DNA from: a candidate division FCPU426 bacterium
Lineage (GTDB): Bacteria; Oederibacteriota; Muellerivitia; Muellerivitales; Muellerivitaceae
NCBI GenBank assembly: GCA_963771075.1
Contig: CAVYSE010000007.1
Span: 64,001 to 128,000 of the forward strand
Length of the DNA stretch: 64,000 nt
Direction: 5' to 3'
Positions 33,431 to 49,981 of this stretch are shown here, one piece after another. Position numbers and translations under genes: made by a program. The number at the start of each line of letters is the position of its first letter. Position 1 is the stretch's first letter. The notes under the pieces were generated by a model. That model was not told where the DNA came from. It worked only from the letters and a program-made list of their open reading frames with translations, and searched no databases.

Positions 33431-33507
33431 GCGCCTGTAGCTCAGTTGGATAGAGCAACTGCCTTCTAAGCAGTGGGTCACCGGTTCGACTCCGGTCAGG
33501 CGCACCA
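33431..33507 (+). tRNA. tRNA-Arg(TCT), integration site of element 1
   Basis: Anticodon arm ACTGC-CTTCTAA-GCAGT, CCA end. Confidence 0.95.
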
Positions 33508-33522
33508 TATTTTTCAACGGTT

Positions 33523-34638
33523 TTACAACTTCACTTCTTGGCCGGCACCCGTCCGTGTCATATCCGTGTCAAACTGCCTCTCAACCTGTAGTAGTGCGTT
33601 CACCCGGTCCTTCCGGTCGATCCGGTTATACCGTTTGAACATGGCGTAGGTCTTATGGCCCGATATGGACATGATGACCGAGTCGCTTACCCCCGCCTTT
33701 CTTAGATTCGTCACCGCGCAATGCCTGAGATCGTGGAACTTAAAATTTCCGATCCCCACCATGCGGCACGCCCTCAAAAAGGCGGACTTGACGCTTTGCA
33801 TGCGCTTTCCCCTATGGGTGAAGACATAAGGGCTTCCAAGGGTCTTAGGGGTCCGTTTCAGGAGGTCTAACAAGCTCTCCGTCAAAGGGACTTCCCGTTT
33901 CTCCTGGGTCTTGGTGTCCGCGGCTTCCAGATTGATGACTTTGTTTTGAAAGTCCACCTGTTCCCACCGCAAACTCAAAATTTCCCCCTTCCTCATACCC
34001 GTCCAATAAGCCAATTGGACTATGGCACTCAGTCGGGGCGCGCAATAACCCAAGAGCGCCTCGTATTCTTCCGGCGTCAAGGTGCGGTCGCGGGATTCTT
34101 CCCGGAAGGGCCGTACCCTTTGGATCGGGTTTTTCTCAATCAAATCATTGAGGACCGCCCGATTCACGATAGCCTTGAGAGTCCCAAGGTCCCGGTTCAG
34201 TGTAGCGTTGGATAACGCCTTTCCGTTACGGCCTTGATTTAAGGCTTGGTTTCCGGCCTTCTTCCGTTGGGTTAAAAAGCCTTCCACAATGTCCGGCGTT
34301 AAGCTTCTCAAGGGTCTGTCACCGAAATAAGCCCTGAGCCGCTCGACCATCTGGATATCGTTCTGGTGGCTTTTCCTTCTTGCCTCGGAATAAGCCAGGA
34401 ACGAATCCGCCGCTTCGTTGAAGGTGACTTCCGGCTTTTCCACGGCCAAGAACTTTCCCGCCACCATTTCTTGCATGTGTTGGGCCAGTATCTTTTTGGC
34501 TTGGGCAACCGGTATTACACCCAATCGAACCCGCTTGCGCTTCTTCAATCCTCCCTCATCGATAAAGTAATCCAGGAAATACCCCTTTTCGTCCTTACGG
34601 AGAAATTGGGGCAATCCATGAACATTAGGTCTACTCAT
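33523..34638 (-). CDS. Tyrosine recombinase / integrase (element 1)
   Basis: TGMRKGE (R), TKT (K), FHDLRH (HxxR), SGHKT (H), RYN (Y); AGGAGG RBS. Confidence 0.96.
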   Translation of the reverse strand: MSRPNVHGLPQFLRKDEKGYFLDYFIDEGGLKKRKRVRLGVIPVAQAKKILAQHMQEMVAGKFLAVEKPEVTFNEAADSFLAYSEARRKSHQNDIQMVERLRAYFGDRPLRSLTPDIVEGFLTQRKKAGNQALNQGRNGKALSNATLNRDLGTLKAIVNRAVLNDLIEKNPIQRVRPFREESRDRTLTPEEYEALLGYCAPRLSAIVQLAYWTGMRKGEILSLRWEQVDFQNKVINLEAADTKTQEKREVPLTESLLDLLKRTPKTLGSPYVFTHRGKRMQSVKSAFLRACRMVGIGNFKFHDLRHCAVTNLRKAGVSDSVIMSISGHKTYAMFKRYNRIDRKDRVNALLQVERQFDTDMTRTGAGQEVKL

Positions 34639-34889
34639 GCGTCCCTCCTAATGTCCCCAGCACTTGGCATTTTATAATCAGAGTCCGCCCAAGATGGAAG
34701 GGGTTTTTTAAAAACTTGAAGAAACACCGAATACCAAACCCTCGGATACTTACCAACCTTCACAAAGGGAAGGGCACCGGTCTGCCGCCAATAGCGGACG
34801 GTATTGGGGGAAACACCGGCTTTTTCGGCAATGTCTTTGTCCGACATTAAAAAATTCCGCCGTTCGACATTTTTCCTACGATCTACCAT
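34635..34889 (-). CDS. Excisionase-like HTH protein (MerR/HTH_17 type)
   Basis: MSDKDIAEKAGVSPNTVRYWRQTGALPFVKVG pattern; overlaps the int start; GGAGG RBS. Confidence 0.82.
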   Translation of the reverse strand: MVDRRKNVERRNFLMSDKDIAEKAGVSPNTVRYWRQTGALPFVKVGKYPRVWYSVFLQVFKKPLPSWADSDYKMPSAGDIRRDA

Positions 34890-35200
34890 GGCCTACCTCC
34901 CTTTTTAAAAATTTTAAATAAACGACCCTCCAAAGAATTCTCTTTGGAGGGTCGAAAATTGGGTTGTGAAGCGTTCAAGGTTTGGGGGATTCTCCGGGCT
35001 GATTGACTTGGAATTTTGTTTTCGGTTGTCGAAGCGGAACAACTTGCGAGGGCGAAATCTTCGGGGCAGTAATCGCCCTTTAAATGCAAAATCTGAAATT
35101 CGTTTTTGGGGGTCATCCGTCACCGCCGTATTTTGTGATATTTATTTTGACTGTCTTAAGCGCCTAAACGTTTCATCAAAAAGAAATAATTATTTTGAAA

Positions 35201-35305
35201 TGTCACTGACCGTCACTTACTGCCGCTAACTGCCACTTGTGATCGGCAGTGATCTTTTGTGAGCATTCTCCGTGACCATCGTTAACCATGGATTGCCATG
35301 GATTG
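35201..35305. repeat. 10-bp phased direct repeats in the divergent control region (element 1)
   Basis: TGTCACTGAC/CGTCACTTAC/TGCCGCTAAC/TGCCACTTGT, then CGTGACCATC/GTTAACCATG/GATTGCCATG; conserved at 45871-45975. Confidence 0.7.
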
Positions 35306-35355
35306 GACGCAATAGATTTTTATGACACTTAAAATTTTTGGGAGCGAAAGGAGAA

Positions 35356-47997: not shown

Positions 47998-48004
47998 GGG
48001 AAAT

Positions 48005-48667
48005 TTGTTGCCTACTCAAAAATGTTACACGGAAAAAGAGCTTATAAAAGAGTTGAAAAAATTTAAGCCTAAATGGAAAAAATGGTTTAACTTTCACCGA
48101 TTGTGGGAACAGGATAGTGAAATAGAAAAGTTTATCCGCCATGCCGTTGACGGGAGTACATTCAGAGCTTTTCGCGGAGTTAAAAACCCAGCAATAAAAT
48201 TTAGAATTTGGGCGAAAAAGTATTTGACCGACAAGCGTTTAGAAGAACTTCGTAAAATAAAAAGTCAAACCGAATATTCTGAATGGCTAAACGATATGAG
48301 AAAACACTTGCAAGGCCATTGGAAAGCCAAAAAGAAAATGGATTACGGCCATGCCATGAAACTCTCAAACCTATTGGTAAAGCAACTTTGTTGTTCAAAA
48401 AGGGAAATACCGCAAAAAACGTTCAATGAAATAATCGAGTTCATCGAGGTGCCGCTTGATAAATATTCTCTTCAAGCCATAGCCAATTGTAAAAAATATT
48501 TGCCGGAAGACGTCAAGATTAAAGGAACTGATGCGATGGGTTATATAAAAAACGATAAGAAAAAGTACAAAAAAATTCAGGATGGTATTCGAATGCTTAT
48601 CAATGAAAATAAAGTAAAAGTGCCTCCAATTGCTTTCGATTTATTCGTTTGGAACCATGCCCATTAA
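48005..48667 (+). CDS. Basic, Lys-rich hypothetical protein (AT-rich cargo)
   Basis: 220-aa ORF; motifs YGHAMKLSNLLVK, EVPLD, FDLFVW. Confidence 0.7.
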   Translation: MLPTQKCYTEKELIKELKKFKPKWKKWFNFHRLWEQDSEIEKFIRHAVDGSTFRAFRGVKNPAIKFRIWAKKYLTDKRLEELRKIKSQTEYSEWLNDMRKHLQGHWKAKKKMDYGHAMKLSNLLVKQLCCSKREIPQKTFNEIIEFIEVPLDKYSLQAIANCKKYLPEDVKIKGTDAMGYIKNDKKKYKKIQDGIRMLINENKVKVPPIAFDLFVWNHAH

Positions 48668-48706
48668 GGTCCAATAAAGAACATTATGAAAAGAAACGGA
48701 GGAAAA

Positions 48707-49603
48707 ATGAATAAAGTATTATTTGTATTATTGGCACTTGGACTAAGTGGCCCATTGATGGCAAATGACAAAATTGTGGTACAGATTAATAACGATATAT
48801 CCATGGAGAACTATAAAAAAGACCTCTACTTAGCGATGCATTTTTACAAATTGAAAAATTTTAAGGAAGTTTTAAAAGAACTTAAGAAATTTGAAAAGGA
48901 TACGGCTGTTGAAAATCCTTCGCCAAGTGGACAAGCGACTTATTCATACATCCTTTATCGAGTAACGATGTACCAAGCCCAAATGGCACAAAAACAAGGG
49001 AATAAAATTTTGTATTTGGAGTGTAAGGATAAAGCTAGAGATCTATTAGACAGGATTCAAAATATTAGTGATGTGAATGACGAAAGGGTTAATCAAGCAC
49101 TTGGACCTGGGCACGGCGGAGCTATCCTAGTTGCGATAGATGAAATAAAACCTTATTTTGATTGTTACGATAGTAACGAAAGAAATTGTGATGATTACTT
49201 TGTTCAACCGATTGCTACTCCAACCCCTGAAATGATACCCGTGACTGTATCCGTCGAGTTGTCGCCAAAAGCCACTCCGGTAATAAATATGGGTTATTAT
49301 GAATATAAAAATCCCCCGGGTTTGCAAGTAACGATGAATTGGAACCCGATTCTTGAAAGCACAAATGCCGCAACTACGGTAATTTATCTTCCTAAGGGAA
49401 GCGGAAAGCGTTTTCAGATTGAGGAAGAATTTCCTAAAGATGAAAATGCATCATTTACCCTAGTGATTTCTCAACCTGGATCAGAATCCGTAACAAGTCA
49501 TGGAGTTGATTGTAGTGCTGGTCTTGGTTGTCGCCGGGCAATGATAGACGTTAGAGCGGGAGAAAATATTTCAAATATGTTAAGTGAATCCAGCGGAAAT
49601 TAA
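48707..49603 (+). CDS. Secreted hypothetical protein (helical N-domain, TPT linker, beta C-domain)
   Basis: GGAGG RBS, MNKVLF signal peptide. Confidence 0.7.
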   Translation: MNKVLFVLLALGLSGPLMANDKIVVQINNDISMENYKKDLYLAMHFYKLKNFKEVLKELKKFEKDTAVENPSPSGQATYSYILYRVTMYQAQMAQKQGNKILYLECKDKARDLLDRIQNISDVNDERVNQALGPGHGGAILVAIDEIKPYFDCYDSNERNCDDYFVQPIATPTPEMIPVTVSVELSPKATPVINMGYYEYKNPPGLQVTMNWNPILESTNAATTVIYLPKGSGKRFQIEEEFPKDENASFTLVISQPGSESVTSHGVDCSAGLGCRRAMIDVRAGENISNMLSESSGN

Positions 49604-49935
49604 ACTGTAGGATCAATCGGTGTCATATACGTGTCAAATTTGGACTCACTGAATGAATTGCAGGCAGTCTTTTTTACGACCCCCTCCATGAAATGCAGGG
49701 GCTTACAAGGCACAGGCGGTAAAAATTAGTCGTTCTGCCGTGTCATATACGTGTCAAACTTAACCATGCTTTACGATGCTTGACCATCACTTACCGCCGT
49801 TTACCGCCACTTCAAAAAAAGAGCCCTTGCCGCTCAGGTCGTAAAACCGTTGCAGGCAAAGGCCCTTGAAACTGTGCTGGGGACTGTGAATTTTTAAACT
49901 CGCTCTAAAAGAGCGTCCAAATATGGTTTCGGTGA

Positions 49936-49981
49936 TTTACACGCAGGGGGTCACAGGTTCGAATCCTGTTTCGCCCACCAT
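49936..49981 (+). repeat. Distal att site of element 2: tRNA-Val 3' half duplicate
   Basis: Identical to 44062-44107. Confidence 0.95.

Follow-up and report, generated by a model that had tools for sequence, protein, structure and literature searches.

Two small tRNA-integrated elements of a candidate division FCPU426 bacterium as probable mobilizable elements with a predicted MOBC relaxase and without a coupling protein of their own

Relaxase-only integrative and mobilizable elements (IMEs), such as NBU1, Tn4555 and IMESag-rpsI, are an established class (PMC5704250). MobC is listed there among the relaxases of canonical IMEs, a MobC row of Table 2 carrying VirD4, and the mobilizable plasmids known to bring a VirD4, which are few, have a MobC relaxase as well (PMC5704250). 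PF13814 relaxases are the MobC of CONJscan (PMC5357655), and TraX combines a winged helix-turn-helix (HTH) with a restriction-enzyme-like site (PMC12857230, PMC6736028). The mechanism of MOBC relaxases is poorly known: in these accounts CloDF13 MobC has no reported covalent intermediate, and the binding site of TraX is distant from the nick. Here we describe two elements within a stretch of 64,000 nucleotides (the window) from a candidate division FCPU426 bacterium (GenBank assembly GCA_963771075.1, contig CAVYSE010000007.1, positions 64,001 to 128,000 of the forward strand; coordinates without a prefix are those of the window). Both are probably IMEs in which a MOBC relaxase and a hairpin origin of transfer (oriT) are predicted, and which would borrow the coupling protein and channel of a related element resembling integrative and conjugative elements (ICEs). 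Since they carry an integrase, a predicted relaxase and a predicted oriT but no mating genes, they likely hitch on a related self-transmissible element, and the helper is likely an ICE-like element whose integrase family and hairpin they share. The features that carry this reading are the following.

33431-33507, plus strand: tRNA-Arg(tct), integration site and attL of element 1 (core from 33463), an intact tRNA with end repeat
33523-34638, minus strand: tyrosine integrase of element 1, 371 aa (PF00589, E 5e-32)
35399-36202, plus strand: predicted MOBC-type relaxase of element 1, 267 aa, winged HTH plus PD-(D/E)XK with D168, E185 and E187
36288-36382, plus strand: type 1 hairpin, predicted oriT of element 1, common to ICE-like relatives (z -8.9)
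40223-40267, plus strand: attR of element 1, tRNA-Arg 3' half, 37/45 nt alike
44030-44106, plus strand: tRNA-Val(tac), integration site of element 2, an intact tRNA with end repeat
44122-45225, minus strand: tyrosine integrase of element 2, 367 aa (PF00589, E 6e-33)
45402-45528, minus strand: type 2 hairpin, predicted second oriT of element 2, with 17-bp perfect outer arms (z -6.5)
46075-46878, plus strand: predicted MOBC-type relaxase of element 2, 267 aa, 85% identical to that of element 1, ratio of nonsynonymous to synonymous substitution (dN/dS) 0.16
46966-47058, plus strand: type 1 hairpin, predicted oriT of element 2 (z -8.3)
49933-49980, plus strand: attR of element 2, tRNA-Val 3' part, 47/48 nt alike

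Both elements are confirmed, element 1 spanning 33463-40267 at tRNA-Arg and element 2 approximately 44059-49980 at tRNA-Val. Each begins at an intact tRNA and closes with a duplicate of the tRNA 3' part, and a site-specific integrase and flanking att repeats are present. In one relative (L067; L-numbers denote relative loci, G-numbers genomes, with G000 the source genome, and C-numbers contigs of the source genome) the tRNA-Arg site is empty, with 437 bp to tRNA-His. The two integrases are 78% identical (dN/dS 0.18). The initial annotation, made from the letters of the window, described a shared backbone and gene order; the integrase, control region, 267-aa gene and hairpin block are indeed common, but the excisionase gene (xis) occurs in element 1 only and the type 2 hairpin in element 2 only. 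As it also stated, no capsid, large terminase, primase, coupling-protein or type IV secretion system gene was found among the open reading frames (ORFs) scanned, 23 in one scan (Pfam) and 12 in a second (PHROG). The intact tRNA-Arg 3' half (33463-33507) and the displaced copy (40223-40267) differ at 8 of 45 nt, the T-stem changes being compensatory, and the intact half matches the right-end copy in G067, which belongs to another genus (L139:9698-9748); the element appears to exchange tRNA halves between hosts.

The 267-aa protein of both elements is most likely a MOBC (Replic_Relax) relaxase, predicted to be of the non-HUH kind on the basis of homology, fold and gene context. Its predicted structure (predicted local distance difference test score, pLDDT, 93.6) was compared using VIA-align: the N-terminus matches MarR-type winged helices (Z 10.1, root-mean-square deviation (rmsd) 2.2, 76 aligned) and the remainder nickases and restriction enzymes (Z 8.9-9.3, rmsd 4.0-5.0, 134-153 aligned), which bears out the winged HTH and PD-(D/E)XK architecture first proposed for it. 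D168, E185 and E187, which form the D...ExE triad of PD-(D/E)XK, are invariant across 48 aligned rows. PF13814 is found in 6 of these 48 proteins at E<=0.1 (lowest E 7.9e-6), in 16 of 49 wider relatives scanned (picked from 75) at E<=0.001, and in 17-24% of the members of its ESM Atlas neighbours, and a relative from the ICE clade has a weak NCBIfam MobC match (E 1.8e-4). A tblastn search of a plasmid database gave no match. Relaxase relatives were gathered by genome, phylum and metagenome searches, and 77 distinct proteins were compared for gene context. It is because 54 of the 60 relatives outside the branch of the window proteins sit directly behind a VirD4-type coupling protein (absent in 2 and undecidable in 4) that the MOBC identity is favoured. 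The source genome itself has three distant copies, on C2, C27 and C12, and in each case the gene immediately before the copy encodes TraD/VirD4 coupling-protein domains.

The relaxase family is centred on the host's own family, where it occurs in 21 of 30 genomes, compared to 25 of 99 in the phylum. We distinguish clade A (the branch of the window relaxases), clade B (ICE-like), clade C (with the type 2 hairpin) and clade D (the relaxase of C12). Clade A comprises 17 of the 77 proteins; the coupling protein is lacking in 15 of them, and less than 450 bp of upstream DNA is available in the other 2. In a tree of 41 of the 77 rows, clade A has a support of 99/99 and groups with clade B, clades C and D falling outside. 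With clade A nested in this way, loss of the coupling protein is the simpler reading. All 16 relaxase comparisons with element 1 give dN/dS values of 0.07-0.28. Because of the clade support, the low dN/dS and the lack of a coupling protein in all 15 members with enough upstream DNA, clade A is, judged by its sequences, a maintained coupling-protein-free lineage under purifying selection and not debris. An ICE-like element that lost its coupling protein and channel by deletion is its likely origin, and L011 and L067 have retained the ICE gene order without a coupling protein. The coupling protein was lost independently on two more occasions, represented by L043 (G068) and L089, of which one belongs to clade C and the other lies near clade B. 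A piece of a third clade A element lies near tRNA-Glu in the source genome (C18:217143-219459, L005), with a relaxase C-terminus 97% like that of element 2, a type 1 hairpin and MNT-HEPN; no integrase match was obtained in it.

The long hairpin is best read as a predicted oriT, because it lies behind the relaxase gene and upstream of ArdC in ICEs, has clade-specific stems and is kept in elements without a relaxase. This position agrees with that reported for MOBC machineries, in which the oriT lies between the relaxase and mating-pair formation (MPF) genes (bioRxiv 10.64898/2026.01.13.699239). The fold z-scores of type 1 refer to 200 shuffles. Types 1 and 2 and the hairpin of C12 align as one family. 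Across an 18-pair stem in 42 sequences, 97.9% of 756 cells are paired, 11 of the 18 pairs are double-changed and none is changed on one side alone; 0 of 500 shuffles reach the observed stem covariation, a control that is inflated by relatedness. A second hairpin set aligned to the model is 97.8% paired, with 9 double-changed pairs, the alignment leaning to the model. The covariance model finds hairpins in 24 of 31 host-family genomes and three sites only in the window (two of type 1, one of type 2), all of them part of the model-building set. Type 1 accompanies clades A and B and type 2 accompanies clade C, and in both element 2 and L104 a type 2 hairpin lies where xis would be. A profile search of 17 of 20 hairpin regions that had no nearby relaxase match found no relaxase. 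Rfam gave tRNA-type and chance matches only. Upstream of hairpin 1 lies a short motif that is not claimed as a binding site, as no more than 14 of 50 rows have it even with both strands included. In L009 (10979-13060) the right arm of hairpin 1 is interrupted by a group II intron (RVT_1 and GIIM), and a related intron ORF occurs in L012. Hairpin 1 is also found in L148, L150 and L154, without a relaxase and next to integrases that are unrelated or distant (26-54% identity); other islands would here have captured the origin.

In the host family, a single family of integrases is common to four tiers of elements: ICE-like, with coupling protein and relaxase, relaxase-only (to which the window elements belong) and relaxase-less. 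The ICE-like elements of clade B are 49-65 kb and carry a coupling protein, a relaxase and VirB4/VirB6. In G053 two complete ones stand in tandem (approximately 65 and 49 kb), in the order tRNA, coupling protein, relaxase, cargo, hairpin 1, ArdC, a conserved VirB6/VirB4 cluster, xis and int. The source genome holds one as well, C2 and C3 being its two ends with a common 45-bp tRNA-Asp repeat. VirB4 relatives occur in 14 of 31 host-family genomes and in the source genome on C3 and C8 only; Pfam PF03135 gave no VirB4 in the source genome, where P-loop_TraG and NCBIfam did find it. As most genes of the ICE cluster lack a family match, the channel may be of an unusual type. Between the VirB4 cluster and xis-int (L006:7355-8827; L112:5916-7733) stand a TPR-GGDEF gene and a SpoVG-like gene, and the ICE cargo on C2 (L001:3009-13880) includes AbiEi/AbiEii, PHP-ATPase, umuDC-like genes, ArdC and RadC. 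A second VirB4/VirB6 cluster with ArdC and RadC (C8:61901-90247) has two genes in common with C12, which is plasmid-like (C12:7678-17927, L003) with rep/ParA/ParB-like genes, a coupling protein, a clade D relaxase and its own hairpin.

The elements of clade C measure 20-37 kb and contain a relaxase, hairpin 2, xis and int; among the four that were delimited, a coupling-protein match was obtained in three and a VirB4 match in none. One such element of the source genome has its two ends on C27 and C11. Clade C elements (L002 and L007, i.e., C27:55175 and C11:2358-2400; L119, L121-L125) lie upstream of an intact tRNA and duplicate its 5' 40-49 nt, an arrangement that is the reverse of that of the window elements, with the same integrase family. 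Clade A elements are approximately 5-9 kb, occur at tRNA-Arg, tRNA-Val and tRNA-Asp, and in the loci examined never lie within a large element. Finally, five elements in three genomes (G049, G066 and G067) have both hairpin types and neither a relaxase nor xis. G067 has two complete ones (4.5 and 5.1 kb) at the same tRNA-Arg and tRNA-Val sites, and G066 has one complete element at tRNA-Ser and another with a truncated integrase. The element of G049, cut by a contig end, is 93% like the left arm of element 2 and 87% like its MNT-HEPN region.

In the proposed mechanism, the integrase, with excisionase (Xis), would excise the element as a circle, and the predicted relaxase would nick it at the hairpin or close to it. 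Export of the strand, with the toxin-antitoxin-like pair and cargo side leading, would then fall to the VirD4 protein and the VirB4/VirB6 cluster of the helper, and the integrase would insert the element into a tRNA of the recipient. Lacking an excisionase, element 2 would depend on Xis supplied in trans, and through its second hairpin type it could also be mobilised by the relaxase clade that brings its own coupling protein. The initial view of compact mobilizable elements that depend on a single nuclease and a cis site is supported; in element 2 the predicted cis sites are two, not one. Rather doubtful, though worth stating, is a wider scheme of layered exploitation in one host lineage, from ICE via elements with coupling protein and relaxase to relaxase-only and origin-only elements. 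Element 2 and its relaxase-less kin would be two-key hitchers, in which xis was swapped for a second clade-specific oriT and which would excise only with Xis of a helper and leave via either relaxase system; the coupling-protein-free relaxase may even act in trans on the near-identical hairpin of the ICE, thereby repaying a helper with a relaxase gene that is frameshifted in the present assembly.

Several observations weigh against this interpretation. The window 267-aa protein itself has no match in Pfam (PF13814 included, at E 0.1) or NCBIfam, the Replic_Relax profile named in the initial annotation being matched by relatives only, and Foldseek against PDB gave nothing at E<=0.001. In the helper cluster VirB4 and VirB6 alone were recognised, i.e., part of a presumed channel, and the relaxase gene of the ICE-like element in the source genome has a one-base frameshift, either real or an assembly error (a programmed frameshift was rejected, the breaks lying at differing columns or in N gaps). 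Logan contig data of 7 out of 24 runs gave tRNA cross-matches alone, with no circle or empty-site joint for the strain. The loci counted are kin and not independent samples, and the hairpin-bearing loci served to build the covariance model that finds hairpins. What the sequences show is the anatomy, the gene losses, the selection and the hairpins held in common; that the elements excise, are nicked and use the coupling protein and channel of a helper, that Xis acts in trans and that two helpers are used are steps that we infer.

Of the other explanations, the one closest to our reading accepts mobilisation as described but places the true oriT next to the hairpin, which would then be a single-strand promoter, a priming site or a terminator and not the nick site. 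The location of the hairpin just upstream of the ArdC/RadC leading-region genes in ICE-like elements would fit this, as would the intron in its right arm in L009 and a loop sequence that is more variable than the stem. However, the stem sequence shifts with the relaxase clade, the relaxase-less elements retain one hairpin per type, mostly approximately 700 bp apart and on opposite strands, and a simple terminator scan does not call the hairpin; as just one of the 756 cells is of G-U type and one-sided changes are absent, a DNA cruciform fits better than an RNA stem. We consider this explanation unlikely. Even less probable is that the 267-aa protein is the replication initiator of an excised circle, with the hairpin as replication origin and the elements as phage satellites or integrative plasmids, despite their small size, their integration in tRNAs and the description of PF13814 as 'plasmid replication and plasmid DNA relaxation' (PMC3424549). 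Relatives of the protein are coupled to a VirD4 gene, and C12, which has rep/ParA/ParB-like genes, additionally has such a protein beside a coupling protein. None of 37 pattern matches in viral contigs encodes a relative, and PHROG gave no structural, primase or packaging match for 12 proteins, only short HTH matches, so that the satellite option of the initial annotation is not borne out.

It seems very improbable that the elements are decayed, immobile remnants of ICEs. Their derivation from ICE-like elements by gene loss, the absence of xis from element 2 and the existence of broken relatives (the C18 fragment, a truncated integrase in L142 and a truncated relaxase in L012) would be in line with decay, but the dN/dS values of relaxases and integrases given above, the intact end repeats and the occurrence of a single clade at three tRNA sites with differing cargo argue otherwise, as does the same cargo set at tRNA-Arg (window) and tRNA-Asp (L064). 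The initial annotation had asked whether homologues consistently belong to larger prophages or ICEs. The outcome is mixed: distant ones lie in ICE-like elements, whereas the close branch is intact and under purifying selection, as set out above. The interpretation as IMEs with a predicted relaxase and oriT remains the one we favour.

The remaining features of the two elements are as follows.

33555-33571, plus strand: GTGTCA-N5-GTGTCA repeat, predicted integrase arm site of element 1 (second copy at 40038-40054)
34635-34889, minus strand: excisionase-like HTH protein, 84 aa, element 1 only (HTH_17, phrog_66)
34956-35398, no strand: divergent control region of element 1, with 10-bp repeats that recur near the right ends
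36709-37438, plus strand: MNT and HEPN pair of element 1, in a swappable slot
37493-39961, no strand: cargo of element 1 overall, with HTH_3 at 37493-37699 (minus strand)
37764-38324, 38354-39229 (TPR) and 39365-39961: three cargo proteins of element 1 with signal-peptide-like N-termini
40030-40200, no strand: conserved right-end arm of element 1, with an arm repeat, 10-bp repeats and a small inverted repeat
45627-46074, no strand: control region of element 2, 88% like that of element 1
47253-47997, plus strand: MNT and HEPN pair of element 2, non-orthologous to that of element 1
48005-49603, plus strand: low-GC cargo of element 2, proteins of 220 and 305 aa without family match
49620-49636 and 49740-49756, plus strand: two arm-type repeats of element 2 (region 49620-49756)

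Five GTGTCA-N5-GTGTCA repeats lie near the element ends and are predicted, by position only, to be integrase arm sites. The excisionase of element 1 is absent from element 2, in which the type 2 hairpin occupies that position. Integrases cluster by target tRNA with the tiers mixed (29 rows, some relaxase-less rows being incompletely delimited). A promoter scan was uninformative. The G+C content of the cargo is 0.46 in element 1 and 0.40 in element 2, compared to 0.50 and 0.51 for the backbones. MNT-HEPN had been counted as part of the backbone; a pair is present in both elements, but the two are merely 54% (over 48 aa) and 40% alike, and in sibling loci the slot is filled by DUF5615, DUF4258 or HTH pairs. 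From these comparisons MNT-HEPN is judged to be interchangeable cargo. PADLOC matched MNT to PDC-S09 and nothing else. The cargo of L064 (tRNA-Asp) resembles that of element 1. The conserved leader peptide of the initial annotation was rejected, since the upstream ATG is missing in 5 of 15 sibling loci and the frames are mixed in the remainder. Between the elements lies a GH94 phosphorylase gene (41178-43518), which is read as ORFs of 114 and 677 aa in the window and as a single 779-aa ORF in L139; the split is possibly an assembly frameshift.

The family thus offers a maintained coupling-protein-free MOBC clade, dozens of relaxase-hairpin pairs in which the stems vary with the relaxase clade, and intermediates for every step from an ICE to an origin-only island. 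This opens two questions to swap tests, i.e., what determines the oriT specificity of MOBC relaxases and whether a hitcher is a reduced form of its own helper. That hitchers originate by reduction is a proposed model (PMC11389934). Since the window protein escapes Pfam and NCBIfam profiles, such elements may be missed in profile screens. A literature search found no named coupling-protein-free MOBC IME family, most subscription journals being outside its coverage.

Compared to ICEs, the window elements have no MPF genes of their own (VirB4 etc.) and no coupling protein, and compared to phage satellites (PICI, P4-like) they have no primase or replicase, packaging or capsid-redirecting genes. 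iOriTs, which carry an oriT and no relaxase, resemble the relaxase-less siblings in G049, G066 and G067, whereas the window elements retain a predicted relaxase gene; mixed communities of iMOBs and iOriTs through relaxase loss have been described as well (bioRxiv 10.64898/2026.01.13.699239). In that work iOriTs are mostly unrelated to their helpers beyond the oriT, and approximately 85% carry one oriT, extra ones often being of the same family, whereas in the present case a single integrase family links all tiers, and the small elements pair two clade-specific hairpin types. Staphylococcal plasmids with pWBG749 oriT mimics are likewise hitchers with diverged oriT subtypes of a conjugative family, but they are plasmids and their specificity is conferred by an accessory protein (PMC8136818), none of which was found in the window elements.

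pAD1 TraX and CloDF13 MobC share with the window protein an N-terminal winged HTH, a restriction-endonuclease-like site and a D-E-E motif (PMC12857230, PMC6736028), a likeness drawn from their descriptions, and they differ in being plasmid-borne and paired with a coupling protein. Streptococcal IMEs with MOBC/PF13814 relaxases (Class_IME_8) are likewise compact integrative elements with a MOBC relaxase, which in the window elements is a predicted one (PMC5357655, PMC7168690, PMC12479173). However, these have their own VirD4 (2 of 2 in PMC5357655, and stated for 71 in PMC12479173), which the window elements lack, and Class_IME_8 has a serine integrase instead of a tyrosine integrase; they correspond to the clade C relatives, with coupling protein and relaxase, and not to the window elements. 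The canonical IMEs NBU1, Tn4555 and IMESag-rpsI combine an integrase with their own relaxase and oriT, both of which are predicted in the window elements, the helper giving the coupling protein and the channel. The named tested examples use MOBP or MOBV relaxases (PMC5704250), whereas the predicted relaxase in the window resembles MOBC and a close relative is the likely helper. The two elements fit the relaxase-only IME class and are, therefore, not a new kind of element; their novelty lies in a predicted MOBC relaxase without a coupling protein, because those MOBC IMEs for which a description was found carry their own.

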